From assembly GCA_963769025.1 (NCBI GenBank), contig CAVYKI010000006.1, positions 384,001 to 448,000 on the forward strand: DNA of 64,000 nucleotides, read 5' to 3'. Below the pieces are notes generated by a model, which was given only the letters and a program-made list of their open reading frames with translations, searched no databases and was not told where the DNA came from. Below, one piece after another: positions 2,335-20,248 of this stretch. Numbering within the stretch: position 1 is the first letter of the stretch; each line of letters opens with the position of its first letter. The translations under genes were made by a program, and so were the position numbers. Origin of the DNA: an uncultured Verrucomicrobiae bacterium (lineage in GTDB: Bacteria > Verrucomicrobiota > Verrucomicrobiia > Chthoniobacterales > Chthoniobacteraceae).

Positions 2335-3856
2335 TCACGGGTTCGTGAGGTTCGGCGCCCACGTGCCATCCCGCAGTTCAGGCATCTTGCCGTCGGCGGG
2401 GAAGGTGGTCTTCACGGCTTCGCGGAGCTTTGCGGAAAGCTCCGCGACGGTCGCGACGTGTGCGGGATTCTCGGCGAGATTGGTGAGTTCCTTCGGATCA
2501 TTGTCGTGGTCGTAAAGCTCGCGTCCCTGCCGGCCTTCGTCCCACTCGGTATAGCGCCAGCGAGGGGTGCGCAGGCTGTAGCCGAGGAAGCGCTTCACGT
2601 TGTCGCCCACTGCCGGGGCCGCGCCCATGCGCTTGAAGCCGCCGCCGCGCACCACCTGGCTGATCGTCCAGCCGCGTCCGGCTGCCGCCGGGTCTTTCAA
2701 CATGGGCGCGAGGCTCTGGCCCTGGAGATTCGCGGGCGGCTTCACGCCGCAGAGTTCCGTGAGCGTCGGATACAGATCGATGAGGCCGACGGGCGCCGAG
2801 GCGACGCTGCCGGGCTTCGCGACGCCGGGACCGGCGATGATGAGCGGGACGCGCGCGCTTTCCTCGAAGAGGCTCTGCTTCTGCCAGAGCCCGTGTTCGC
2901 CGAGGTGATAGCCGTGGTCGCTCGTGAAAACGACGATGGTGTTGTCGCTCAGGCCGAGGCGGTCGAGCGCGTCGAGCACCTTGCCCGCCTGCGCATCCAT
3001 GAAAGTGATGCTCGCATAGTACGCCTGCAACGCCTGCCTGCGCAGATCGTCGGTGAGCTTGTCCTGCTCCTTCTTGTAGCTCATCAGCCCGGCGGGCGGG
3101 ATGTCCTTCTGATCCTCCGCGACGCCCTGCACGACCGGCATCTGCGCCTCGGGATATTTTTCAAAGTAGGATGCCGGCGAGACGTAGGGCGTGTGCGGGC
3201 GGAAGAAGCCGACGGCGAGAAAGAACGGGCGATCCTTCTGCTTCGCGCAACGTTCCAGCACCCACTCCGCGTCCGCGGCCTCCATGCCGTCGGTGTGCTT
3301 CGCGTCGGGATTCTTCGAGGCGAGCCAGCTCAGCGTGCCGCCGAATTGCCCCGGCGTGAGGCTGAAAATGTCCGGCTCCTCCGTCATGCGGTCGCAGCCC
3401 GCGGGGTTCAGCTCCATTTCCCACGAGCCGGGATCGTCGTGGCCGTTCGTGCCGATCGAGTTCGGCACATTGTAGTGGTAGAGCTTGCCGATGCGCACCG
3501 CGAGGTAGCCCTCGAGCCGGAACGCCTGCGGCAGGCTCACGGCTGACGGGATCGTCTGCCGGAAAATCTGCGCATTCGCGAGGATGCCCGTGCTGTTCGG
3601 GTAGCAGTCCCGTGAGCATCGAGTTGCGGCTCGGCCCGCAGAGCGGGAACTGGCAGTACGCACGGTCGAAGCGCACGCCGCGCGCGGCGAGCTTGTCGAG
3701 GTTCGGCGTCTTCACGAGCGGATGCCCGTAGGTGCCCATGCTGTTGTTCAGATCATCGGCGATGATGAAGAGGACATTGGGCTTTTTTGCGGGGGCGTCG
3801 GCGGCGCTGGCGGTAACGACGAGCGCGGCGAGCAGGACGGGGAGGATTGGATTCAT
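2335..3856 (-). CDS. Cys-type sulfatase (iduronate-2-sulfatase-like), one frameshift near 3606
   Basis: Signal peptide, [22 protein letters not shown] (CxPxR) in ORF 3161..3856; continues in ORF 2335..3663 with [20 protein letters not shown]; about 506 aa joined. Confidence 0.9.
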
Positions 3857-3901: not shown

Positions 3902-5575
3902 CTATTTGGCCGGAGGTTGCTGGGGCTTCTTCCTGCCGCCGCCGTCGCCGGCGTCGGTGAAAGGTGGCTGCTCGAATCGCGGGGGATTTTCCACGACACG
4001 CGGATCGTTCGCCTCGCGGAGTTTTTTCATCAGCTCGGCGGCGAGCCTGTCCTTCGCTTTCGCGAAGCCGGCGTTGCCCGCGAGATTGTTCACCTGGTCG
4101 GGATCCTTGCGCAGATCGTAGAGTTCCTCGGCGGGCCGCTTGCCGAATGCGAACTCGTAATGCCACTGCCACTCGGGATCATTGCGGTGCGTGACGAGCC
4201 AGGCTTTCGTCGGGCTCGCATCCATGTCGGCGAATGCGGCGTAGGTGGAATTTTGCAGCGCATCGGAGGGCGGCGTCTCCGTGGCGGTCACGCCCTTCGG
4301 CGAGCCCATCGGCCAGCGGTCGGCCTCGAAGTTGCGGATGTAAACGTAGTCCGGCGTGTGCAGCGCGCGCATGGGGTAGGGGAGATTTCCCTCGCGCGCT
4401 GCGCCGACGTGCCGCTCGCGCCCGGTGATGACCCAATCGCGCGTCGGATCGATGAGCCCGCTTTTGTCCGACTGCATGAGCGGCAGCAGCGAGCGGCCGT
4501 AGAGCCCCTCGGGCGGCTTCACTCCGGCGATCTCCATGAAAGTCGGCGCGAGGTCGGGCAGGCGCACGAAGTCCTCCACGATTCGGCCGCCTTTCCCGCC
4601 CGGCACGCGCATGACGAGCGGCACGCTCACGCCCATGTCGTAGAGGTTGCACTTGCCCGCGGGAACGCCCGGCATGCCGTGATCGCCGCTGAGCACGATG
4701 AGCGTGCGGGCCGCCTCGCCGGTTTCCTCGAGGCGCTTGAGCAGTTCGCCGACGCACGCGTCCACGGCCTGGCATTCGCCGAGATAGTCCGCCACGTCCT
4801 CGCGCACCTCGTGCACGTCGGGGAGAAACTTCGGCATCTTGCCCCTCAGCGCATCGGGCTCGATTCCCCAGAGTTTCTTGCCCGAGCCTTTGATCCACGT
4901 GCGGTGCGTCGTCGTGGTGCCGAAGAAATAGTGCCACGGCTCGCCCTCTTTCCGTGCGGCGAGGAATGCGTCGAAATTGCCCCGCACCTGCGCGAGGATC
5001 TCCGCGCGGGCCTGGTCGAAGGACATGCCCTTTCCCACGCGCGCGGTGGCTTCTTCGGAAAAATTGTTCGGTGCGCGCCCGGCCTTTTCATAGGCGTATT
5101 GCTGGCCGCCAAATGGCGCGTCCGCCGGCGTGCCGGGGCTCCACACCTTGTAGCTTTTCCCGATCCTGTAGCCGGCGTCGCGGATCATGAGCGGATACGT
5201 CGGGATGGAATCGTCCCACACCGCGCCGTTCAGGATCGCGGCGCGTCCCGTGTTGAAGAAATAACGCCCCGTGAGCAGCGAACTGCGGCACGGCGTGCAG
5301 CTCGGCGCGTTGACGAACGCATTCTTGAAGACCACGCCTTCCTTCGCGACGCGATCCACGTTGGGCGTCTGCACGACGTCATTGATCGTGGGCCGCCCGT
5401 CGAGGCCCTTGTAGCAGCTCGCGTAGCGACCCCAGTCGTCGGCGAAGACGAAGAGGATGTTCCAGCGGGGTGCGTCTGCCGCTGAGGCCGGGAGACAGAA
5501 GGCCGCGGCCAGCAGCAGGAATCCGGCGAAGCGCGTGGCGAAGGTGGAAGAGTGGGGTGTGTGCAGTGTGTTCAT
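3902..5575 (-). CDS. Cys-type sulfatase (sulfamidase-like)
   Basis: Signal peptide, NILFVFADD, CTPCRSSLLTG, GDHGMP, ELYDL. Confidence 0.9.
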   Translation of the reverse strand: MNTLHTPHSSTFATRFAGFLLLAAAFCLPASAADAPRWNILFVFADDWGRYASCYKGLDGRPTINDVVQTPNVDRVAKEGVVFKNAFVNAPSCTPCRSSLLTGRYFFNTGRAAILNGAVWDDSIPTYPLMIRDAGYRIGKSYKVWSPGTPADAPFGGQQYAYEKAGRAPNNFSEEATARVGKGMSFDQARAEILAQVRGNFDAFLAARKEGEPWHYFFGTTTTHRTWIKGSGKKLWGIEPDALRGKMPKFLPDVHEVREDVADYLGECQAVDACVGELLKRLEETGEAARTLIVLSGDHGMPGVPAGKCNLYDMGVSVPLVMRVPGGKGGRIVEDFVRLPDLAPTFMEIAGVKPPEGLYGRSLLPLMQSDKSGLIDPTRDWVITGRERHVGAAREGNLPYPMRALHTPDYVYIRNFEADRWPMGSPKGVTATETPPSDALQNSTYAAFADMDASPTKAWLVTHRNDPEWQWHYEFAFGKRPAEELYDLRKDPDQVNNLAGNAGFAKAKDRLAAELMKKLREANDPRVVENPPRFEQPPFTDAGDGGGRKKPQQPPAK

Positions 5576-5734
5576 CGGGGTGCGTAGTTTATCCGTGCGG
5601 GAGTTTCCGATTAGCCATGGCAGGCGGGCCGGGTCACGCTCTTTGGGAGCCCTTGCTCGCTTGGAGATTGTGGCGTCCGGTGCGTTTGACACCTTCTGCG
5701 CGGCCACCTAGCCTGCCGCGCTCAGAACCGTTCC

Positions 5735-6859
5735 ATGCGTCCACAGTCCCCCATCCAGTCCCCGCGTTTCGGCCGTACCGCGGCGATTGCGGCGGCGATC
5801 CTGGCGACGGTGGCGGTGCTTCAGCTCGGCGCGGTGACGGTCGCATTTTTCAAAAAGTCGGGGAGCGGCGCTTCGGAGAATGACGATGACAACGGCGGCG
5901 GCCCGCCGATGAAGATCGATATCTCCAAGCTCGTGCTCGACACACCGCCCCCCGAGGCACCCTTGCCGCTCGGCGTGGATCCGCTCGCGTCGGCCAACGA
6001 CGATCGCCCGCCGGGGCCGCAGCCAATCCTGCCGCGCGCCGAACCGCTCGTCCCGCCGCACGACCCCGCCGCTTCGCAGGCCGGGAATCTCGCGCCGCCG
6101 CGCCCGACGCCGGTGCCGCTGAGTGCGTTCACGCCGAAGGCCGATCCGCGCTTCAGCGAACTCGTGGAGCAGGGCAGGCTCCTCCGCAGCAGCGGCGATA
6201 CTGCGGGCGCGCTGGTGAAATTCCGCGAGGCCGCGGTGATCGAGCCGGGCAATCCGCTCGCCATCGCGGAGCAGGCGTACACCTTTGAAAAAATGAGCCT
6301 GCCGGACAAGGCGGCGGAGCAGTGGAAGCGCCTCGTCTCGATGGGCGACCGCGCGGGCCTGTATCATTCGGTGGCGATGTCGAAGATGAACACCGCAGTG
6401 CAGGGCACGATGCGCACGACAGCCGGTGGCGGGCCGCCGATCCCGCAGGGAAAGGTGATGGCCATCGGAAGCACCGTGGCGAGGGAGGAACCGGACCCGG
6501 AGGCGGCGAAGAAATTCACGCTGTCGGTGCCGATCCGCGCGGGTGCGGCGGAGACCATCGCGGTGCGCGACATGAAGGTCTTCGTGCTTTTTTACGAACG
6601 CGTGAGCGGCAAGGACATCGCGCGCACCATCGCGAACGTCAGCAACCGATGGTCTTCATCGCCGGTGGACTGGAAGGAAGGCGACACGGAGACGCTGGAG
6701 GTGAGCTACGATCTGCCCGCGCAGCAGGCGCGAGCCGAGCACCGGGAATATTACGGCTACATCGTGCGGCTTTATTACCGCGGCGAATTGCAGGATACGA
6801 AGGCCGAGCCGGCGAACCTGAACCAGAAGTTTCCACCCCCCTACACACTCTCCGAATAG
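5735..6859 (+). CDS. Membrane-anchored protein with Pro-rich linker, TPR-like helices and C-terminal beta-rich domain
   Basis: N-terminal TM AAIAAAILATVAVLQLGAVTVAFF; TPR-like GDTAGALVKFREAAVIEPGNPLAIAEQAYTFEKMSLPDKAAEQW. Confidence 0.7.
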   Translation: MRPQSPIQSPRFGRTAAIAAAILATVAVLQLGAVTVAFFKKSGSGASENDDDNGGGPPMKIDISKLVLDTPPPEAPLPLGVDPLASANDDRPPGPQPILPRAEPLVPPHDPAASQAGNLAPPRPTPVPLSAFTPKADPRFSELVEQGRLLRSSGDTAGALVKFREAAVIEPGNPLAIAEQAYTFEKMSLPDKAAEQWKRLVSMGDRAGLYHSVAMSKMNTAVQGTMRTTAGGGPPIPQGKVMAIGSTVAREEPDPEAAKKFTLSVPIRAGAAETIAVRDMKVFVLFYERVSGKDIARTIANVSNRWSSSPVDWKEGDTETLEVSYDLPAQQARAEHREYYGYIVRLYYRGELQDTKAEPANLNQKFPPPYTLSE

Positions 6860-6869
6860 AAACCAAATC

Positions 6870-9615
6870 ATGCGAATCCTGATTGTTGATGACGAGGCGG
6901 GCGTTCTCCAGGCGCTCATGGCAATAGTGAAGGCAATTCCCGGCCACGAGGTGCGGGTCGCTGCCAGCGCGCAAAAGGCGCACGAGCACGCGGCTGCGCT
7001 GGGCGGCGTGGATCTGCTGATCACCGACGTGGTGATGGATCCGACGGATGGCTTCACGTTGCGCGCGGAAATGCAGGGACTCTATCCGGAATTGCAGGCC
7101 GTCTTCATCAGCGGTTACGACCTGACGGAATACGCGGAGCAGACTGCCGGGACGCCAGTCCTCGCGAAACCCGTCGATGCCGACGCGCTGAGGACCGAAA
7201 TCGAAAATGCGGCAGCTCGTCTAGCCGCACCTGCGCCCGCTCCCGTCGCGGCTCCGGTCGCCGTTTCCGCGCCGCAGCCGGCTGTCGCCGCGGTGCAGCC
7301 GGTCGCCGCGGCAACTCCAACCGTGCGGGCGGTGCCGCAAGGGATGCCAGTCGCTGCGGTCGCGCAACCGACGGTCCGCGCAGTCCCGCAAGCGTCTCCG
7401 GCTGCCGTTCCTTCGGCTGTGCCGCGTGCGGCGGCTGTCCCGGCTGCTCCGACCGCGCAGCCGGCGGCGCGCGCAGTCCCGCAGGCGACGCCTGCAGCCG
7501 TGCCCTCCGCCGCCCCGCGTGCAGTGGCCGCTCCGACCGCACAACCGACCGTGCGGGCTGTCCCGCAAGCGGCTCCTGTCGCCGTGCCTTCCGCGACGCC
7601 GCGTGCCGCTGCTGTCCCGGCTGCTGTCCCGGCTGCTCCGGCTGCGCAGCCGGTGGCCCGCGCAGTCCCGCAAGCGACCCCTGCTGCCGTGCCTTCCGCA
7701 ACGCCGCGTGTCGCCACGGCTCCGGCCGTTGCGACCGCGCAGCCGGTGGTCCCATCCACTCCTGCCGCCCAGCCGACGGCGCGCGCCGCGTCCCCGGTGC
7801 CCGCCGTTCCTGTCGCTCCGCCTCCGGCCGTGCCGCGCGCTGCGACTCACGTGGCGAGCGCGGCAGCAGCGCCAGCCGGACCGCCGGACCCGCTGATTGG
7901 CGTGCAGCTCGGCGACTACCGCGTGCAGCAATTCATCGGCGACGGGAAATGGGGCCGCGTTTACCTGGCGCTGCAGCTCAGCGTGAACCGCCGCGTGGGC
8001 CTGAAGGTCCTGAACCCGGAGCGTGCCGAGGACGAAGGCGTCCGCGCGCAGTTCCTCGCCGACGCGCGGGCCAAGGCCGCGGTGCAGCATCCGTTCATTA
8101 TGTCCGTCTTCGAGGCGGACGAGCGCAACGGACTGGCGTTTTACACGCACGAATTCCTCGACGGCGCGAGCATGGCCGAGCGGATCGAGCGCGGGCAGAA
8201 GCTCGATGAAAAGACGGCGCTCCACGTGATGAAGGTCGCCGGCGAGGGGCTGCAATATCTCTGGTCGCACAATCTCTCCCACGCGCCGATCGAGGCCGAC
8301 AGCCTGCGCCTCGGCGCGGACAACATCGCCCGCATGGCAAATATCGCGGTTGCCGATGCGGACCCGTCCGTGACGGTCGAGCAGGAGCTTTTCACGGTCG
8401 GGACCATCATCCAACAGCTCACGCACGAGAACCTCATTTCCGGCGGCCTCCGCGCGCTGCTCGCCCGCATGACCGGTGGCCCGAACCCCGTGACCGGCTG
8501 GCCGGTGGTGCTCCAGGCCGTGAAGGCGCTCGAGCCAAAGGTGATCCCCGTAGAGGCCGCGAAGATGAAGGCGGCGGACGCGGCGGCGATGCGCGCGGTG
8601 GAGGCGGCCCGCAAGGCAAAGAAGCGGGCGCTTTACATCAGCGTCGCCACGCTGAGCGCGCTGGTGCTGATCCTCGGCGTCGTGGTTTACCGCTACGTCC
8701 TTACCAACGCGCGGCAGCTCGATGCCCAGGTGCAGATTCCTGCGGGCAGCTACAGGGTGGGCGAGGCCGGGAACCACGGCGGAGCTGGGCGCCTTCGAGA
8801 TCGACAAGTACGAAGTCAGCATCAACGAGTACGCCAAGTTCATCGCATGGTGCGAAAAGAATCCCTCCCAGGAGCATGAGTTCGACCACCCGCGGGGCGA
8901 GCGGAGGCTCTCGCACGTCACCGACGAGGTGAAGACACTCATCCTGAACGCCGCCGTCCGCGGCGGGCGGGTCTTCAAGCAGGAAGGGAATCCGACCCTC
9001 AACGTGCCCTCGGATCCGGGCGTGGAGATCGACCTGAACAGCCCGATGGTGGGCGTCACTTTCTGGAGCGCGTATGCCTATGCGAAGTGGCGGGGAAAAG
9101 TCGTCGAGAACGGCGCGGTGCGCGACCTTCCCACCGAGGAGGAATGGGAGGCCGCCGCGCGCGGCAAGAAGGGCTTCAAGTACCCGTGGGGCGATGAGCT
9201 GAAGCTCAAGAATTTCAACTCGAACCAAGGCTACATGCCGCTCGTTCCGGGCAGCAAGAAGACGGACGACGGCGCGAATTATTGGGCTGCGGTGGATGCG
9301 TTCGGCAATGACGTCAGCGAATTCGGAGTCGTGGGAATGGCGGGCAATGTCTGCGAGTGGGTCTATCGCAAGGAGGGCAACAAGGAGATCCCGCTGCTCA
9401 AGGGCGGTTCCTTTGCGAGCGATCCGATCCCGATGTGGGGCCGCATCCTGAAAATTCCCGCGGACGACGCGTGGTTTGTGTGGCCCGCGGCGAACAAGCC
9501 GAAGGGAAACATGCCGCCGTCGCCGGGGGCGACCAGCCGCTATTACGTGGGTGACGATGTCACCGCATCCTTTCGCTCGCTGTATGTCGGATTCCGCACC
9601 GTTAAGCGCAAATAG
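6870..9615 (+). CDS. Receiver / Pro-Ala repeat / pseudokinase / TM / FGE-sulfatase (SUMF1-fold) multidomain protein, one frameshift near 8772
   Basis: REC (ILIVDDE, LITDVVM, ISGY, LAKP); kinase N-lobe (IGDGKWGRVY, VGLKVL); TM LYISVATLSALVLILGVVVY; FGE-fold motifs FEIDKYEVS, LPTEEEWEAAARG, YPWG, GMAGNVCEW, KGGSF, GFRTV in ORF 8722..9615; about 914 aa joined. Confidence 0.85.
7225..7880 (+). repeat. Imperfect tandem coding repeats (five RAVPQ-anchored Pro/Ala/Val units)
   Basis: Units such as PTVRAVPQASPAAVPSAVPRAAAVPAAPTAQ recur; DNA gc(a/g/t)gt(c/g)ccgca(a/g) near 7329, 7380, 7473, 7557, 7662. Confidence 0.85.
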
Positions 9616-9621
9616 AAGCAA

Positions 9622-10494
9622 ATGAAGCCCCTGAACCGCCTCGCACTCCTGGTCCTCTTCGTGGGACTCCTTTCCTCCGCGAGCGCGCAGCTCGAGGTCG
9701 GCCTGGAAATGAAACGCCACATTTTCATGCGCGGTGAGCCGGTCGAGGCGACCGTCACCATCCGGAATCTCGCCGGCAAGGACGTGATCCTGCGCGACGC
9801 GGCCGGCAACCAGTGGTTCAGCTTTGAGATCATCAAGAGCGACACGCCGATCGGCCCGTTTGACCCCGACTACAAAAACGAACCGCTGGTCGTCCTCAGC
9901 GGCGCTTCCGTCCGCCGTAGCGTGGACCTGCTGAAGCTCTACCCGGTCAACGAATACGGGACATACTCCGTCCGTGCGGCGATCTATTTTGAGGAGACGA
10001 AAAAGTATATCTCATCCGGCTCGCTGAAAGTGGACATCAGCGACGGGCGGAAGCTCTGGACGCAGACCGTCGGCGTGCCGGCCGCGCAGGAAGGATCCGG
10101 CGAATACCGCGTGGTGTCGCTGCTCTCCTTCCAGCGGCCGAAGGAAATGACCATCTACGCCCGCGTCGAGGATGACCGGACGGGCGCCATCTTCGGCACC
10201 TATCCGCTCGGACGCATGGTGGCCGGCACGAATGTGGCGCATGAATTCGACCGGGATAATACGCTGCACGTCTTCCACATGGTCGGCCCCGGCCAGTACT
10301 ATCTCTCGAAAATCGGCGTGAACGGCGAGTGGCTCGGCCAGACCGTGTGGCATGCCGGCAAGGGCCGCGCGACCGTGCGCAAAAAGGAGGACGGACGCCT
10401 GGTCATCGTCGGCGCGACCCGCACCGCCGAGACGCCGCAGCCCGGCCCGGAGGTCCCGAGGCTCAGCGACCGCCCGATGGCGCTCCCGAAGTAA
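9622..10494 (+). CDS. Exported hypothetical protein (beta-sandwich-like N-terminus)
   Basis: Signal peptide ending SSASA-Q; starts 6 nt after upstream stop; host-like codon usage. Confidence 0.75.
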   Translation: MKPLNRLALLVLFVGLLSSASAQLEVGLEMKRHIFMRGEPVEATVTIRNLAGKDVILRDAAGNQWFSFEIIKSDTPIGPFDPDYKNEPLVVLSGASVRRSVDLLKLYPVNEYGTYSVRAAIYFEETKKYISSGSLKVDISDGRKLWTQTVGVPAAQEGSGEYRVVSLLSFQRPKEMTIYARVEDDRTGAIFGTYPLGRMVAGTNVAHEFDRDNTLHVFHMVGPGQYYLSKIGVNGEWLGQTVWHAGKGRATVRKKEDGRLVIVGATRTAETPQPGPEVPRLSDRPMALPK

Positions 10495-10516
10495 GTTGCC
10501 CGGGAGAATTCGCGCT

Positions 10517-10543
10517 TTGACGCGAGGGCGTTGCGTCTAAGGT
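10517..10543 (+). promoter_or_regulatory. Putative sigma70 promoter for leaderless dnaE
   Basis: TTGACG 10517-22, TAAGGT 10538-43, 7 nt before ATG 10551; spacer is short (15 nt). Confidence 0.45.
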
Positions 10544-10550
10544 CGAGGTG

Positions 10551-13500
10551 ATGTCCGACAGTTTCGTCCACCTCCATTGCCATACTGAATTCTCCACGCT
10601 CGACGGCATGGTGCGCGTCGATGCCGCGGTAAAACAGGCGAAGGCCATGGGCATGCCGGCGCTGGCCATCACCGACCATGGCGCGATGTATGGCGCGGTG
10701 GAATTTTACCAGAAGTGCAACAAGGAGGGCATCAAGCCCATCATCGGCTGCGAGGTGTATGTCGCGCCGGATTCGCACACGAAAAAGTCCGCGACCTCGC
10801 AAAAGGAATCGTCGTTCCACCTCACGCTGCTCGCGTCCGACGAGCAGGGGTATCGCAATCTGGTGAAGCTCGTCTCCACGGCGCACCTCGACGGCTTTTA
10901 CTACAAGCCGCGCATCGACAAGGAACTGCTCGCGCAGCACGCGCAGGGAATCATCGGCTTGAGCGGCTGCCTGAAGGGCGAGGTGCCGTACGCGATCCAT
11001 GCGGAGGACAATCTCGCGAAGGCCGCGGAGCTCGCGGCGACGTATCGGGACATTCTCGGGCGGGAGAATTATTTCCTGGAGCTGTCCGACCACGGCATCG
11101 AGGCGCAGCGGAAGGTGAACGCGCAGCTCCCGAAGCTCGCGCGCGATCTCGGGCGTCGGTCTCGTGGCGACGAATGATGTGCATTTCCTGAAAAAGGAGG
11201 ACCACGGCGCGCACGACGTGCTCGTGTGCATCGGCACCGGCGCGAAGGTCTCGGACGAGAAGCGCATGAAGTACGTGAACGAGGTGTACTTCAAATCGCC
11301 GGCGGAAATGCGCGCGCTGTTCGCGGACTTTTCCGGCGCGTGCGACAACACGCTGGCCATCGCCGAGCGGTGCGGCTTCAAGCTCGACACCTCGCCGAAG
11401 TTCCCAAACTACCAGCCGCCCGAGGGCAGGGACCGCAACGAGTACCTGCGCGAAATCACCGAGGCCGGCCTGCGCCGCCGCTACGGCGCGGATGCAGACA
11501 GCGAGGCGGTGCGCCGCCGGTATGAACTGGAAATCGGCGTGCTCGAGGCGCAGGGCTTCGTAAACTATTTCCTGATCGTCTGGGACTTCATCAACTGGGC
11601 GCGGGAGCAGGGAATCCCGGTCGGGCCCGGTCGCGGTTCGGCGGCAGGCTCGATCATCGCCTACGCGATGGGCATCACGGACATCGACCCGCTGAAGTTC
11701 AAGCTGCTCTTCGAGCGCTTCCTGAATCCCGAGCGCGTCTCGCCGCCGGATATCGACGTGGATTTTTGCCAGAACCGCCGCGGCGAGGTGATCGACTACG
11801 TCAAAAGGAAATACGGCGAACGTGCCGTGGCGCAGATCATCACCTTCGGCACGCTCGGCGCGAAGTCCGTGATCCGCGACGTGTCCCGCGTGCTCGACTG
11901 GAACTACGCGACGCCGACCGCATCGCGAAGATGATCCCGAACGAACTCGGCATCACGCTCGCGGGCTACGAGGGAAAGAACAAGGACACCGGCGCGGAGG
12001 AGCATGTCCCCGGCGCGATCGACAAGAATCCCGAGCTCGCGCAGGCGGTGAAGACCGACCCGAACACCGCGCAGATGTGGGAGGCCGCTACGAAGCTCGA
12101 GGGGCTCACGCGCGGCGTCGGCGTGCATGCGGCGGGCGTGGTCATCAGCGATCGCGACCTCAGCGAATACATCCCGCTCACGCGGGCGAACGACGGATCG
12201 ATCGTGAGCCAGTACGCGATGGGTGCGCTCGGCGACGTGGGCATGCTGAAGTGCGACTTTCTCGGACTGAAGACGCTCACGGTCATCCAGGATGCCGTCG
12301 CGCTGATCCACAAGCACACTCCCGCCTTCAACATCGACACGATCCCGTTCGACGACGAGGCGACGTTCAACATTTACAACCGCGGCGAGACGGTCGCGGT
12401 GTTCCAGGTCGAGTCCGGCGGCATGACGGGCTGGGCGAAGCAGTTCGACGTGCGGAGCATCGAGGACATCAACGCGCTCATCGCACTCTACCGGCCGGGC
12501 CCGATGGACCTCATCCCCGACTACGTGAAGCGCAAGAAGGGCCTCGCGAAGGTGCGGGCGCCGCACAAGCTGCTCGATGAAGTGACGAGCGAAACGTACG
12601 GCGTGCTCATCTACCAGGAGCAGGTCATGCAGGCCGCGCAGGTGCTCGCCGGCTACACGCTCGGCGCCGCCGATCTCCTGCGCCGCGCAATGGGCAAAAA
12701 GGACAAGAAGAAGATGGCGGAGGAGCGCGTGAAATTTTGCGAAGGCGCGGCAACGCTGCACGGAATCAAGGAGGCGAAGGCGAACGAGGTCTTCGATACG
12801 CTGGAGAAATTCGCCGGCTACGGATTCAACCGCTCGCACTCCGCCGCCTACGCGTGGCTCAGCTACCAGACGGGATTCCTGAAGGCGAATTACCCGGTGG
12901 AATTCATGGCCGCGGTGATGAGCAACGAAGTCTCGAACACGGACAAGATCAGCATTTTCGTCGCGGAATGCGAACGGCTGGGAATCCGCATCCTGCCGCC
13001 GGACATCAACAAGAGCGGGCTGAAATTCGAGCCGGACCACGTGGATACGGCCGGCGTCGAAGCGGCAAAGGCCGCGCGCAAAACCGCGCTCGCCCAGGCA
13101 GCGAAGCCGGGAGAGGACGAGTACCCGGACATTGCGCCGGACATCGAACCGGATTCAGGCGTTCGCTTCGAGGATATGCCCGTCGGAGAGAAGAAGAACG
13201 GAGCTGCCGGAGTGGCGGATGCCGCACCGCCGCCAACGGACGAACGGCTCCACCTCGGGGCGATCCGATACGGCCTCGCAGCGATCAAAAACGTCGGCGA
13301 GTCTGCGATGGAATCGGCAATGAGCGAGCGCGCACGTGGTGGACCGTTTGCGGGCATCGAGGATTTCTGCGCGCGCGTGGATGGAAAGCGGATCAGCAAG
13401 AAGGCCATCGAATGCCTCGTAAAGTCCGGAGCATTCGACGAGTTCGGCGCGGATCGTGCGACGATGTTTGCAGGCATCGAAGGCGCGATGGCCGCGGCGG

Positions 13501-14219
13501 CGAGTGCGCACCGAGACCGTGCGGCCGGGCAGGTTTCGCTTTTTGGTGACATGGGAACGGTCGCGAAATCCGCGCCGGCCCGGAATGTCGCACTGGTCCC
13601 GCCGTGGAGCCTCACGGAGAAGCTCGGCTTTGAAAAGGAGCTGCTCGGTTTTTACGTGACCGGTCATCCGCTCGACGAGTATCGCAGCGCGCTGGAGAAC
13701 CCGAAATTCGTCCCCATCGCGCGCCTCGCCGTGCAGGAAAACAAGAGCACCGTGACCGTGGCCGGACAGCTCGCGTCCGTGGAGCGGCGCTTCACGAAGA
13801 AGGACGGGAAGCCATTTGCCATCGTCGTGATCGAAGATCTCACGGATCAAATCGAAGTGATGGTCTGGAACGAAGCGTATGTGCGCGCGCAAAAGCTTCT
13901 CGAGCCCGGCGCCGTGGTCTCGATCACCGGGCGGCTCGATCTCCGCGAGGACGGACCGCGCATCAGCGCCGAAGACGTGAAGCCGCTCAAGAAACCGGGC
14001 GCGGATGAGAAGCCGCTTGTGCTCAAACTCGACACTGCGAGTGCCACGGAAGGCGACCTTTTGAAAATCCGCGAGACGCTCGTGCGCCATCCGGGGACGC
14101 GGCGCGTCGAACTGCTCGTCACCCGCGGCGGGGCGCTGGCGCGTGTCGTCTTCCCGGCGGAATTCCGAATCACGCTCAGCGAGGCCGCCAGGGAGGAACT
14201 CGCGCAGTGGCTGCGCTAG
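10551..14219 (+). CDS. dnaE: DNA polymerase III alpha subunit, frameshifts near 11152 (+1) and 11908 (-1)
   Basis: [69 protein letters not shown] fold; three ORFs join to about 1222 aa. Confidence 0.97.
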
Positions 14220-16901: not shown

Positions 16902-19292
16902 CTACTTGGCCGTGGATGCCGGTTCGGCCTGCGACGTGCCCCGGCGCATGAGAAACGCGGGGCTTTTCACGATTCCGCTGATGAGCGACGAAAACCGGTA
17001 GTCGTTCTTTTCCAGTGTGAACGCGATGCGCGCGACGGTGGGCTCGTCGTAGTAGTCGAGACCGCGGCCCAGCGCGTAGGTGAGCATCTTCTCCGTGAGG
17101 CACCGCGTGAAGTCCTGCTTGCGGCTGCGGAGGAGCGTCTTCATGTCGGCGAGGCCTCCCATCTTCTGCCCTGTGGCGAGTTCGCCGGAGGTGTCGATCG
17201 CCGCGCCGGTTTCATCGCGGTCGCGCCACTGGCCGATGCCGTTGAAGTTCTCCAGCGCGAATCCGAATGCATCCATCTTCGCATGGCAGTTTGCGCAGCT
17301 CGGGTCGGCGCGATGCTGCTCGAGCTTCTGCCGGAAAGTCCCGCTCAGCTCCTTCCGCTTGCTGTCGTCGAGCGACGGGGTATTCGGCGGGGGAGGGGGC
17401 GGCGGCGTGCCGAGCATCTGCTGGAGGATCCACTGTCCGCGTTTCACGGGTGAAGTGCGCGTGGGATTCGATGTGACGGTGAGGATGCTCGCCTGCGTGA
17501 GCAGCCCGCCGCGCTGTGTCCCCTCGAGCGAGACGCGCTTCCATTCATCCTTCTGGAAATTGCCGGCGGACTTGATCCCGTAGAGGTCGGCCAGCCGCTG
17601 GTTCACCCACGTGAACTCGCCATCGAGCAGGTCGAGGATGCTGCGGTCGGTGCGCAGGATTTCGCCCACGAATCGCTGCGTTTCCTCGATCATAGACGCC
17701 CGGAGTTCGGGCTTCCAATTTGGGAACGCCTTCGGGTCGGCGCTGTGTCCCTCGAGCCGGCCGAGTTGCAGCCACTGCAGCGCGAAATTCCGGATGAGCG
17801 CCTCGGCCTGGGGAGCCTGGAGCATCCGTTTGACCTGCGCATCGAGGTTTGAGGTGAGCTTTCCGGCGGAGGCGAGCTGAAGCAGCTCGTCGTCCGGGCA
17901 CGAACTCCACAGGAAATACGAGAGCCGGGTCGCGAGCTGGAATTCGCTCACCGGATGCGGTTCGGGATTCTCCGGGCGGTCATCGGGTTCGAGCCGGAAG
18001 ACGAATTTCGGCGACGCGAGGATCGCGCTGATGGCGCGGCGCATGGCTTCCTCCCACGTGTCGTTGTGGGCCATCCCGTAGGCGACGAGCTTGCAGAGCC
18101 GGTCGAGTTCCTCGGCGGAGACGGGTCGGCGCCACGCGCGCGGCGCGAAACGCGCGAGCACCTCGCGGGTATGCTCGGCCTGCGGCTTGCCGGGAGTGAC
18201 GACGAGCAGCGATTTCGTCGCGGCGTTGCGCGTGTCCATCGGCCCCTCGTATTCCATCCACTCGACGTAAAGCGTCGGGGACGGCTGACCCGCCGGCGGC
18301 TTGAATGCGGCGAGCGCGATGCGTTCGATGCCCTCCATGCGGGGAACCTGCACCTCGATTATTTGCGCGTCCTTTTCCGACTGCGCGGTGATCTCGGTGG
18401 TTTTCAGGATGCGGGCGCGCTTGACGTTGGCGACGGCTGAACCGTCGAGCTTCGCCATCTCGGTTTCCGGAGCGGGCTTTGGAATGGCAGGCCCCGCGAC
18501 CATCAGCGCCACGCGGACGGGCTTGCCGACCGGCGATTTTGCATAAAGCCGCGCGCGCATGACGTAGTCCCCGTCCGCCGTGATCCTCGCGGGCGTATGC
18601 ACGGGGCCGGAGAGGACGGTGACCGTCTCGGACCCGCAAAACGGCCGGAACTGCGACGTGGGCACGTTGGCCGACTGGGGCTCCAGATACCTCGCTGCCA
18701 GCCTTCGTTTCGGGGGCGTCGTCGCGCTGAGCGGGATCGCCTGCGCGGCAATCTGGTCGGCCGCGTCGAGGTAGCGCTCCATGAGCACCGGCGAGACCGT
18801 GAGGACGTCGGCGATGTTGTCGAAACCGTGACCGACGTCGTCACTCGGGAAATTGTCCGCGGGCCGGAAGTCGATCTTCAGCAGATCACGGATCGTGTTG
18901 TTATATTCCGTGCGGTTCAGCCGCCGCACCGTGAGCCTGCCGGGGTCGGGTTTGCCGCTGTCGGCCTTGGCAAAAATGCCCGCGACCGATGCGAGGAAGC
19001 GCTGCTTTTCCTCCGCTGACGGCTGCGGCTTGTCGTCCGGCGGCATCTCGCCGGAGCGCACCAGTTCGACCACATCGCGCCAGCGTTTGCGAGCGCGCAG
19101 GACGGAGATGTCATCGCGGAATTCGTGCAGCGCCAGGTCGGCCTTCTGCTTGTCCTTCCCGTGGCAGGAGACGCAATACTTCTGGAGAAACGGAGCGCCC
19201 GCATCGGCAAAGGACGGCGTTGCGGCGCTGCCTATCCGTGCAAAAAAGGCGAGGGCGAGAGTGCCGATGAGAAGCGCGCTGGTTCGCAACAT
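16902..19292 (-). CDS. Planctomycete cytochrome c / DUF1587-DUF1592-DUF1588-DUF1585 family protein
   Basis: Signal peptide, CVSCH, RRLNRTEYNNTIRDLL, LATRLSYFLWSS, RTSPVKRG, CANCH, LTYALGRG. Confidence 0.9.
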   Translation of the reverse strand: MLRTSALLIGTLALAFFARIGSAATPSFADAGAPFLQKYCVSCHGKDKQKADLALHEFRDDISVLRARKRWRDVVELVRSGEMPPDDKPQPSAEEKQRFLASVAGIFAKADSGKPDPGRLTVRRLNRTEYNNTIRDLLKIDFRPADNFPSDDVGHGFDNIADVLTVSPVLMERYLDAADQIAAQAIPLSATTPPKRRLAARYLEPQSANVPTSQFRPFCGSETVTVLSGPVHTPARITADGDYVMRARLYAKSPVGKPVRVALMVAGPAIPKPAPETEMAKLDGSAVANVKRARILKTTEITAQSEKDAQIIEVQVPRMEGIERIALAAFKPPAGQPSPTLYVEWMEYEGPMDTRNAATKSLLVVTPGKPQAEHTREVLARFAPRAWRRPVSAEELDRLCKLVAYGMAHNDTWEEAMRRAISAILASPKFVFRLEPDDRPENPEPHPVSEFQLATRLSYFLWSSCPDDELLQLASAGKLTSNLDAQVKRMLQAPQAEALIRNFALQWLQLGRLEGHSADPKAFPNWKPELRASMIEETQRFVGEILRTDRSILDLLDGEFTWVNQRLADLYGIKSAGNFQKDEWKRVSLEGTQRGGLLTQASILTVTSNPTRTSPVKRGQWILQQMLGTPPPPPPPNTPSLDDSKRKELSGTFRQKLEQHRADPSCANCHAKMDAFGFALENFNGIGQWRDRDETGAAIDTSGELATGQKMGGLADMKTLLRSRKQDFTRCLTEKMLTYALGRGLDYYDEPTVARIAFTLEKNDYRFSSLISGIVKSPAFLMRRGTSQAEPASTAK

Positions 19293-19363
19293 GTTCGGGT
19301 GAACTAATCCGCGAAGCGCAGGATTCTCAAGCGGTGGGTTTCGCTGTGCGGCGCCGCGCCGGC

Positions 19364-20248
19364 TCAGTGAACGACCTTGTTCAGCGGGTATTCGATGATG
19401 CCTTCCGCGCCGAGCGACTTGAGCTGCGGGATGATTTCGCGGACGACCTTCTCGTCGATGATCGTCTCGACGGCAACCCAGCCGGGGATGGCGAGGTGCG
19501 CGATGGTGGGATTGCGCATCGCGGGGAGCGCGGCGAGCAGCGGCTGCAGCTTTTCCTCGGGGAGATTCATCTTCAGGCCGACCATGTCGCGTGCGGCGAG
19601 CGCTCCCTGGAGCAGCAGGACGATGCGGTCCATCTTCGCGCGCTTCCACGCGTCGGCGTAGGCGGCGTTATTGGAAATGAACTGCGGCACGCTCTCCATG
19701 ATCGTCTCGACGATGCGCAGCTTGTTCGCGCGCAGCGAGGAGCCGGTCTCGGTCACGTCCACGATGGCGTCCACGAGGTCGGGCACCTTCACCTCGGTCG
19801 CGCCCCAGGAAAATTCCACCTCGGCGGTGACGCCGTGCTTCGCGAGGAAAGTGCGCGTCATTTCCACGGCCTCGGTCGCGATTACCTTGCCTTGGAGATC
19901 CTTCACGCTCTTCACCGGCGAATCCTCGGGAACGCAGAGCACCCAGCGCGTGGGACGCGAACTGGTCTTGCTGAAGACGAGATCGCACAGCCGCACGACA
20001 TCGCTGCCGTTGTTCTCGATCCAGTCGCGGCCCGTGAGCCCGCAGTCTAGGAATCCGTGCTCGACGTAGCGCGAAATCTCCTGCGCGCGCAGCAGGCGGA
20101 TGACGATTTCGGGATCGTCCACGGCCGGCTTATAGCTGCGGCTGGAGACGGCGATGCTGAAGCCGGCTTTTGCAAAAAGGGCGATGGTCGGATCCTGCAG
20201 GCTGCCCGAGGGCAGGCCGATGCGAAGCTGGCGGATTTCGTCTGGCAT
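19364..20248 (-). CDS. hisG: ATP phosphoribosyltransferase (long form)
   Basis: [45 protein letters not shown]-terminal regulatory domain. Confidence 0.97.

Follow-up and report, generated by a model that had tools for sequence, protein, structure and literature searches.

A conserved three-gene locus of Verrucomicrobiota combines a receiver–pseudokinase–FGE-fold membrane protein with two putative periplasmic partners

We analysed three genes in a stretch of 64,000 nucleotides (hereafter the window; C6:384001-448000) from contig CAVYKI010000006.1 of assembly GCA_963769025.1, which belongs to an uncultured member of the Chthoniobacteraceae, phylum Verrucomicrobiota. All positions given without a contig or locus prefix are those of the window. 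The three genes, all on the + strand, fill positions 5735-10494. Gene 1 encodes P1, a predicted membrane protein with a putative tetratricopeptide repeat (TPR) fold. Gene 2 encodes a 914-aa protein that combines a receiver, a dead kinase fold, a single transmembrane (TM) helix and the fold of formylglycine-generating enzymes (FGE). Gene 3 encodes P4, a putatively secreted, beta-rich protein. The trio is conserved and undescribed, is built from known kinds of parts, and is best classed as a variant of the membrane kinase/pseudokinase receptor theme. It probably ties cell signalling to envelope building. With a probability of roughly 0.4, we read it as one copy of a conserved three-protein verrucomicrobial envelope module, which would act without catalysis, as a scaffold through the membrane that connects a phospho-signal in the cytoplasm with an envelope complex in the periplasm.

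Results

Linkage of the three genes across Verrucomicrobiota

The coordinates of the open reading frames (ORFs; Table 1) confirm that the three genes are co-oriented and separated by gaps of 10 and 6 nt only, as stated in a preliminary description of this stretch. Their linkage extends far beyond this genome. In loci from metagenome-assembled genomes (MAGs) of Chthoniobacterales or related groups, P1 was located directly upstream of the middle gene in 9/9 cases, and P4 directly downstream in seven of the nine; the other two contigs ended before that point. A profile of P1 matched 76 of the 141 genomes of the class, and 71 of 401 genomes in a sample of the phylum, with strong matches inside the class only. 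The P4 profile matched 247 of these 401 genomes (120 of 185 genera), nearly always as one copy per genome. Most families of the class held both P1 and P4 (f2, f3, f5, f7, f16, f11 with 31/31 and f15 with 4/4 genomes) or neither of them (f9 with 0/26, f10 with 0/35, and several smaller families), although these genomes are kin and the pattern therefore does not amount to a statistical test. P1 alone occurred in families f6 and f13, and P4 alone in f20 and f22.

Among 31 other genomes for which both places were listed, P1 and P4 were found on the same strand, 1.6-3.0 kb apart, in 25. In the remaining six genomes the two genes were directly adjacent (two genomes) or at least 32 kb apart (four genomes). 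We retrieved 18 of the gaps between P1 and P4. All 18 contained a match to the pseudokinase and 17 a match to the FGE fold, and six contained a receiver. The receiver-bearing gaps comprised four loci of the window's order and two of family f15, whereas the receiver was absent from all 12 loci of the genus Akkermansia (g12). The receiver is thus accessory, and the core of the module functions in Akkermansia in its absence. The trio of locus L082 corresponds by exact look-up to ACD05605, ACD05606 and ACD05607 of Akkermansia muciniphila, of which the second is annotated as 'SUMF1/EgtB/PvdO family nonheme iron enzyme' and the third carries the automatic name 'Molecular chaperone'.

Incomplete arrangements were informative as well. 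In one genome (G081, locus L116) P1 adjoins the dead kinase, with P4 located 32 kb away. In family f3, P1 and P4 are neighbours with nothing between them (L094) or with a protein of REC and DUF4388 domains between them (L115). P1 thus pairs with the dead kinase without P4, and with P4 without the dead kinase, and therefore looks like the common partner. Hence, the module proposed in the preliminary description is upheld in so far as the three genes are linked, but its hub seems to be gene 1 instead of the middle protein. The intervening protein of L115 (3866-4543, +; from the window's order) is 225 aa long, with a receiver-like N-terminus followed by DUF4388, and lacks a TM helix as well as the kinase and FGE folds.

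Cytoplasmic half of the gene 2 protein

The make-up of the 914-aa read-through of gene 2 bears out the proposed order of a receiver, a spacer of about 220 residues, a kinase-like domain, a TM helix and an FGE fold. The receiver matched Response_reg (PF00072) at 47.9 bits (cut-off 30.2) over profile positions 1-110 of 111. Receivers are characterised by an acidic pocket (DD), a phospho-acceptor Asp, and Ser/Thr and Lys switch residues. The corresponding residues D7, D8, D53, S81 and K100 were invariant in 11/11 aligned proteins, in line with the earlier statement that the phosphoacceptor set is retained. It had also been noted that the window lacks a histidine kinase and, indeed, none of the 69 HATPase_c matches of the genome falls inside it; in both directions, some 100 kb separate the window from the closest ones. 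The spacer that follows the receiver consists for 76% of Ala, Pro and Val (82 A, 51 P and 36 V of 223 residues), holds an 84-nt tandem repeat in two copies (7442-7606), and differs widely in length between relatives.

The kinase-like domain matched Pkinase at 47.7 bits (cut-off 31.7), over profile positions 1-122 of 263 only. Its best match among solved structures was PknA (E = 1.2e-13), and the matches to solved kinases stop at residues 513-521. The Gly-loop (GDGKWG) and the beta3 Lys379 are retained, with K379, G357, G359 and G362 invariant in 11 sequences. In the window's protein, SHA stands in the place of HRD and ANI in the place of DFG, and both Asp residues were absent from all 26 relatives viewed, Akkermansia included. 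Since the HRD motif has lost its catalytic Asp and the DFG motif its metal-binding Asp, we consider this domain a pseudokinase, dead in every relative examined. Only about 60 residues remain between the DFG position and the juxtamembrane helix, which implies that the C-lobe is truncated. By these substitutions, the kinase fold is predicted to be no longer able to transfer phosphate; it may still bind nucleotide. An assignment to the anti-phage defence kinases of PADLOC (PD-T4-6, mad6) was rejected, because the matches span residues 339-513 only, i.e. the generic kinase fold. Genes 1 and 3 yielded no PADLOC match.

Within Chthoniobacterales, though not outside that order, no part of the protein is more conserved than the juxtamembrane residues 551-586, and the invariant columns of the alignment concentrate at residues 552-586. 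A KAKKR cluster precedes the sole hydrophobic helix (residues 587-610), which by the positive-inside rule would place the FGE fold outside the membrane. The gene 2 product would be a bitopic inner-membrane protein with its FGE half in the periplasm.

FGE-fold domain

The C-terminal domain matched FGE-sulfatase (PF03781) at 116.9 bits (cut-off 23.3). Solved FGEs matched at E = 6e-12, with alignments that extend no further than residue 214 (of 297 in the ORF) and stop short of the region where the catalytic cysteines would lie. FGE enzymes carry a catalytic, copper-binding cysteine pair near their C-terminus. We found no Cys among the invariant or near-invariant columns of the domain in 11 sequences, and no Cys after the GGSF of the window's domain. 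The FGE-fold domain of the preliminary description is thus one without the catalytic cysteines. It is predicted to be non-catalytic, and the FGE/C-type-lectin fold presumably serves binding instead of catalysis. Public databases name the relatives of gene 2 'formylglycine-generating enzyme required for sulfatase activity' or 'SUMF1/EgtB/PvdO family nonheme iron enzyme'; their annotation as sulfatase-maturing or iron enzymes is probably wrong.

The FGE fold is a general extracytoplasmic module in this genome. Two apparently complete Ser/Thr kinases, one of them with PEGA domains, also carry FGE-sulfatase, and further fusions join it to a multicopper-oxidase domain or to a cytochrome c domain of planctomycete type (Table 1). 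Three metagenomic proteins (P0089, P0090 and P0103) shared 69-74% identity with the FGE half of gene 2 only, and their N-terminal families were unrelated (PF21760/PF22599, none, and DnaJ, respectively). Either chimeric gene calls or true swaps of domains could account for them.

The two partner proteins

The structure model of P1 consists of a TM helix (residues 13-42), a disordered Pro-rich stretch (43-125), a helical repeat (136-231) and a beta sandwich (242-358). Its predicted local distance difference test (pLDDT) score was 76 overall and >90 in both folded domains. The helical repeat matched the three-TPR peptide-binding domains of P58IPK, PP5, Sti1, Sgt2 and CHIP with Z scores of 13-14, although this is a range that helical repeats can reach by arrangement alone. 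The root-mean-square deviation was 2.5-3.4 Å over 90-96 residues, and the top rows were TPR proteins throughout (50/50). At the sequence level, TPR_2 scored 13.3 bits against a cut-off of 27, whereas the homologue in L115 matched TPR_19 at 3.7e-6. The description of gene 1 as encoding a membrane-anchored TPR protein is compatible with the predicted TM helix and the TPR-like fold of the model, with a sequence-level score below threshold. The beta sandwich resembles immunoglobulin (Ig) constant domains in structure. At E<=1e-3, 155 homologues of P1 were found among 8000 candidates scored, nearly all without a name, and a Pfam family (TPR_2) was present in one of the 120 homologues listed. The 12 N-terminal, cytoplasmic residues are conserved, and G13 and T15 occurred in at least 90% of 33 sequences. 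Three Arg residues precede the TM helix and a net acidic flank follows it, which suggests that the large part of P1 is periplasmic. We predict from these features that P1 is anchored in the inner membrane.

P4 has a signal-peptide-like N-terminus. An Ig-like sandwich occupies residues 24-141, and a beta domain that resembles three blades of a propeller occupies residues 142-270; the tail is disordered and bears the conserved motif PKLSDRPxxLP. The model was all-beta (pLDDT 87.3; predicted template modelling score 0.75), in keeping with the secreted beta-rich protein proposed before. The N-terminal domain matched Spo0M and AsaP1 (Z = 11.2) and RbmA (Z = 10.5), and the C-terminal domain matched propeller fragments with Z scores of about 8. 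We found 165 homologues; the names among the 120 listed were all 'hypothetical', and no Pfam family exceeded its cut-off in P4 or in these 120. In 23 diverse members, sub-cut-off matches were to Big_14 (8/23) and Arrestin_C (4/23). In a protein atlas, P4 matched unnamed verrucomicrobial clusters only, and a search of the named clusters gave no usable match. In a representative library of 1.84 billion proteins, the P4 profile matched 2396 clusters at 50% identity; the family is unannotated. As a marker of genomes with P1, the tail motif is no more than a weak lead: it holds for the sequences of the class in alignment A4, but L096 from another class has a similar DERPxxxP. In L083, gene 3 seemed to be part of an 866-aa fusion, which proved to be an artefact of ORF picking.

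Reading frame of the middle gene

As printed, the locus contains four ORFs on the + strand. Two correspond to genes 1 and 3, and the other two, at 6870-8879 (669 aa) and 8722-9615 (297 aa), overlap by 158 nt and differ in frame by one base. The first strand of the FGE domain (VQIPAGSYRVGEAG) is encoded in the frame of the former, and the remainder (TTAELGAFEIDKYEV...) in the frame of the latter. For the searches, the two were joined into the 914-aa read-through by a four-letter step. Ten aligned relatives place the join between VGEAG and TTAELGAF, which amounts to one surplus base in the GCCGGG at 8766-8771. Contigs of 90-95% identical relatives had one base fewer at 8767 in all three covering runs (X19, X20 and X1, from two studies); run X2 did not cover this position and is outside the count. 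The C-terminal 575 residues of the read-through found 1035 proteins at E<=1e-3 (8000 candidates scored). The receiver, kinase and FGE families were encoded in a single ORF in 106 of the 120 gene 2 homologues listed, at 44-87% identity; their source names, where given, were Chthoniobacteraceae or Chthoniobacter.

Other genes of this assembly are broken in a similar manner. The dnaE gene at 10548-14219 (+), whose product has PHP, pol III alpha, finger, HHH and OB domains, is spread over three ORFs that overlap. The only other locus of PF07733 (pol III alpha) in the genome, C9:635205-635922, is likewise broken, and in three cases elsewhere a HATPase_c domain changes frame midway. The genome is 83% complete, in only 13 contigs. 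Because the relatives' contigs lack the surplus base, the homologues have a single ORF and both pol III alpha genes are frame-broken, an assembly indel is the most likely explanation. Gene 2 is thus most likely one intact gene that carries an assembly error, which, as to the indel suspected near 8772, favours one gene over two. The assembly seems rich in single-base indels, and hence any 'pseudogene' in it needs checking. A scan of 5300-10700 found no promoter-like sites, and seven terminator-like sites against 3.5 expected, none of them informatively placed.

Gene neighbourhoods of P1 and P4

In 10 of the 11 loci from other classes, P4 is located directly after, and on the same strand as, a gene for a YfcE-like phosphodiesterase and a GT9 gene. 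The latter exceeded the cut-off for lipopolysaccharide (LPS) heptosyltransferase II in one locus only (158.7 bits vs 134.6). Judged by this conserved run, the P4 family probably represents an independent envelope factor that has so far escaped annotation. In six loci within the class, an Amidase_3 gene comes immediately after P4; one of these loci has the full trio (L002), and the others are L091, L093, L094, L095 and L115. Loci with P1 only adjoin LpxB (L118, L119) or a YkuD transpeptidase (L120). Through the LPS and peptidoglycan genes beside the P4 family, the module acquires an envelope-biogenesis context that is absent from the preliminary description. The trio itself is flanked by HtrA-type proteases in L008, L009 and L082, and a LysM protein, MlaE and an ExbD/TolR protein each occurred once beside it. 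In the other-class loci L085, L086, L087-L089 and L096-L100, the run reads phosphoribosyltransferase (seen in L086 and L099), YfcE-like phosphodiesterase, LPS heptosyltransferase and P4.

Discussion

A proposed scaffold across the inner membrane

We propose that the cytoplasmic half of gene 2 would hold a phosphorylatable receiver, a flexible Ala/Pro spacer and a truncated dead kinase fold that may act as a dimerising or allosteric scaffold. On the other side of the membrane, P1 would reach into the periplasm on a disordered tether of about 85 residues that bears the peptide-binding three-TPR and Ig-like domains. P4 would be a soluble periplasmic protein of a phylum-wide family that is otherwise found beside LPS-core and peptidoglycan-amidase genes. 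The three extracytoplasmic parts might form a periplasmic complex with P1 as its hub, and the TPR groove of P1 possibly takes the C-terminal tail of P4. In the receiver-bearing form, an unlinked histidine kinase would phosphorylate the receiver and so alter the state of the scaffold, and the altered scaffold would tune, from inside to outside, how the periplasmic complex acts on envelope assembly. The domain make-up, the missing catalytic residues, the gene linkage and the envelope-related neighbourhoods are observed, whereas we infer the topology (from the positive-inside rule and the signal peptide), the complex, the envelope target and the direction of signalling. We favour the inside-out direction because receivers as a rule act on the domain that comes after them, and also because gene 2 has no cytoplasmic output and its receiver is an add-on.

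Several points weigh against this interpretation. The direction of signalling is not constrained by any of our results. The receiver is missing in the 12 Akkermansia-genus loci, and phospho-control therefore cannot be the core function. Contacts among the three proteins remain putative, and the folds of the neighbours (TPR-like, Ig-like and propeller-like) are generic protein-binding modules that say nothing specific on function. Envelope genes are common in any genome, and the flanks of the full trio are otherwise variable; neither a shared fourth gene nor a histidine kinase was found among 32 flanking ORFs from 10 loci. Moreover, related genomes are not independent, so that the support looks stronger in the synteny counts than it is. 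As no public run contains this stretch, a true frameshift in the strain retains a low probability. A complex prediction with the FGE domain, gene 3 and the ectodomain of gene 1 scored 0.00 in two runs without controls and is no evidence either way. The preliminary description had proposed a scaffold that couples two-component phosphorylation to the periplasm. The single middle gene, its dead kinase and the linkage of the three genes are borne out, but the phosphorylation part does not extend to the whole family, because the receiver is accessory.

The scaffold interpretation can be taken further, to a Verrucomicrobia-specific trans-envelope checkpoint at which the phosphoryl signal of the receiver gates outer-envelope assembly from inside, but we regard this as improbable. 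P4 would then be an unrecognised, phylum-wide periplasmic factor of LPS or peptidoglycan assembly, held by the P1 tether and the dead-kinase receptor. Its tail would dock in the TPR groove of P1, and the 12-residue N-terminus of P1 would contact the dead kinase. If true, this would be a new kind of two-component output without a transcription step.

Alternative explanations

The same architecture could serve signalling in the opposite direction. The FGE/lectin-like domain, with P1 and P4 as co-receptors, would then sense an envelope or environmental ligand, the dead kinase would recruit or sequester a cytoplasmic partner, and the receiver would act as a phosphate sink or two-component connector. 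The protein does look like a receptor, with an extracytoplasmic ligand-binding fold, one TM helix, a nearly invariant juxtamembrane helix and a cytoplasmic kinase fold, and two apparently active Ser/Thr kinases of the same genome (the 871-aa and 1073-aa paralogues) carry FGE-sulfatase outside the membrane; such domains also occur in the 'Proteo1' kinase family of a published atlas (bioRxiv 10.1101/2025.01.12.632604). Yet gene 2 offers such a signal no cytoplasmic output domain, the 32 flanking ORFs from 10 loci include no conserved cytoplasmic partner gene, and receivers usually act on the domain that follows. Nothing in the data separates outside-in from inside-out signalling, and we consider an outside-in sensor rather unlikely. 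The trio may also have no signalling role at all and serve only as structure within an envelope machine, in a fixed assembly (for instance a ring or a tether) comparable to the PorK/PorN ring or the EssB scaffold. The FGE fold resembles PorK/GldK (NCBIfam TIGR03525 at E = 8.3e-15; solved PorK chains at 3e-8), Akkermansia retains the trio without the receiver, P4 is single-copy and phylum-wide, and EssB/YukC provides a precedent for bitopic pseudokinase scaffolds. The GldK match is confined, however, to 55 bits against a cut-off of 350 and to profile positions 220-335 of 408, and no other machine genes (ATPase, secretin or motor) are conserved beside the trio. In addition, the window's order conserves the receiver together with all its acceptor residues, a sign of regulation in that order. 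We regard a purely structural role as distinctly unlikely.

The remaining two alternatives question gene 2 itself. A real frameshift in the strain would leave either a pseudogene, or a receiver-pseudokinase-TM protein and a cytoplasmic FGE fragment as separate products. The break is present in the sequence as given, and no public sequencing run shares half or more of the words of this stretch (best shares 0.23 and 0.20), so that none matches it closely. However, indels occur throughout the assembly, the relatives' genes are intact, and the second ORF would miss the first beta strand of the FGE domain and any export signal; a genuine frameshift is therefore quite improbable. It is less credible still that the domain is a working formylglycine-generating enzyme that matures the products of the two sulfatase genes upstream (2335-3663 and 3902-5707, both on the - strand). 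This idea draws on the adjacency of an FGE-sulfatase domain and two Sulfatase genes, and on the public names of the relatives. Against it, the family has no conserved cysteine, the alignments with solved FGEs end before the catalytic region, and the genome already has two full-length stand-alone FGE-sulfatase genes elsewhere (300 and 238 bits). A functional link to the upstream sulfatases was rejected, as no sulfatase flanked the trio in the loci of 15 relatives; neither did a dnaE homologue.

Comparison with known systems

Kinase-TM-FGE is an already known architecture. An atlas of bacterial Ser/Thr kinases lists FGE-sulfatase among the domains of its Proteo1 family (bioRxiv 10.1101/2025.01.12.632604). 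Like the Proteo1-type Hanks kinases and the two paralogues in the same genome, gene 2 combines a kinase fold, a single TM helix and an outer FGE fold in the same order. Unlike them, its kinase is dead, truncated, preceded by a receiver and a 220-residue spacer, and locked to two partners. The Pkinase profile is covered over positions 4-220 and 24-252 of 263 in the paralogues (871 aa and 1073 aa, respectively), but only over 1-122 in gene 2. Chlamydial Pkn1 is presumably another example of kinase-TM-FGE.

EssB/YukC of type VIIb secretion is a bitopic bacterial pseudokinase scaffold. By analogy with EssB/YukC and with the MviN pseudokinase domain of Mycobacterium tuberculosis (family ActPs3 of the atlas), gene 2 may be a membrane-anchored dead kinase fold with a binding role in an envelope process. 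In all seven pseudokinase families of the atlas, the beta3 Lys is lost in some or all members (bioRxiv 10.1101/2025.01.12.632604). In contrast, the gene 2 family keeps the beta3 Lys invariant, and the atlas describes none of its pseudokinase families with a receiver or FGE domain.

The combination of an FGE-fold periplasmic protein and a beta-rich periplasmic partner recalls PorK/GldK with PorN in the ring of the type IX secretion system, but gene 2 has no lipoprotein signal, no genes of this system nearby, a cytoplasmic signalling half, and a score far below the GldK cut-off. With its predicted membrane anchor, long disordered linker and putative TPR domain, gene 1 recalls LpoP, LpoA, CpoB and BamD, TPR regulators that span the periplasm on disordered tethers. 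Its structure matched the C-terminal domain of LpoP (6w5q; Z = 12.6) and BamD (Z = 11.6), although the resemblance is of a generic TPR kind, and high scores are inherent to helical repeats. Unlike these four proteins, gene 1 has a predicted TM anchor in the inner membrane and an extra Ig-like domain. The earlier statement that no characterised system of this architecture is known is in agreement with the literature, in which we found no description of a receiver-pseudokinase-FGE protein or of ACD05605-7/B2UMQ1. Transposon tables of Akkermansia may bear on function.

Bacterial pseudokinases and orphan receivers are poorly understood. Here they are joined in one conserved membrane protein with fixed partners, so that their non-catalytic roles can be tested together. 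The conserved trio occurs both in the present soil member of the Verrucomicrobiota and in the gut bacterium Akkermansia. In Akkermansia muciniphila the trio lacks the receiver and transposon libraries exist, which makes its function directly testable. The P4 family may be a part that is missing from the picture of the little-studied verrucomicrobial envelope.

Features of the locus and flanking genes

Table 1. Coordinates of the trio, its domains and related features
Feature	Position	Strand	Basis
Gene 1 (P1), 374 aa	5735-6859	+	ORF, structure model
Gene 2	6870-9615	+	Single 914-aa product if a base near 8767 is skipped
Receiver (REC) domain, residues 3-111	6876-7202	+	Pfam PF00072
Ala/Pro/Val spacer, residues 118-340	7221-7889	+	Composition
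Truncated pseudokinase, residues 346-550	7905-8519	+	Pfam Pkinase, solved-kinase alignments, motif positions
Predicted juxtamembrane helix (551-586) and single TM helix (587-610)	8520-8699	+	Alignment, coordinates
Probable one-base surplus splitting gene 2	8766-8772	+	Relatives' contigs and homologue alignment
Predicted periplasmic FGE-fold (SUMF1/C-type-lectin-like) domain	8730-9612	+	Pfam PF03781
Gene 3 (P4), 290 aa	9622-10494	+	ORF, structure model
dnaE fragments	10548-11177, 11164-11934, 11766-14219	+	Overlapping ORFs
FGE-sulfatase fusion loci in the genome	C2:226905-229520, C12:123226-126447, C3:243753-246053, C9:159278-160861		

The two sulfatase genes upstream of the trio are divergent from it. 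The product of the more distant one (2335-3663) matches the Sulfatase profile from position 62 only, and this gene may be truncated or frameshifted. At the edge of the window, an ORF on the - strand (3-1079) that leaves the window has a MarR-type winged helix at residues 272-347 of 359, preceded by a long N-terminal part without a family. Further downstream, the gene at 16902-19649 (-) encodes a 915-aa protein with planctomycete-type PSD2-PSD5, PSCyt3 and cytochrome c domains (DUF1585, 1587, 1588, 1592 and 1595); a related protein with PSCyt1, PSCyt2 and PSD1 adjoins the trio in L084.

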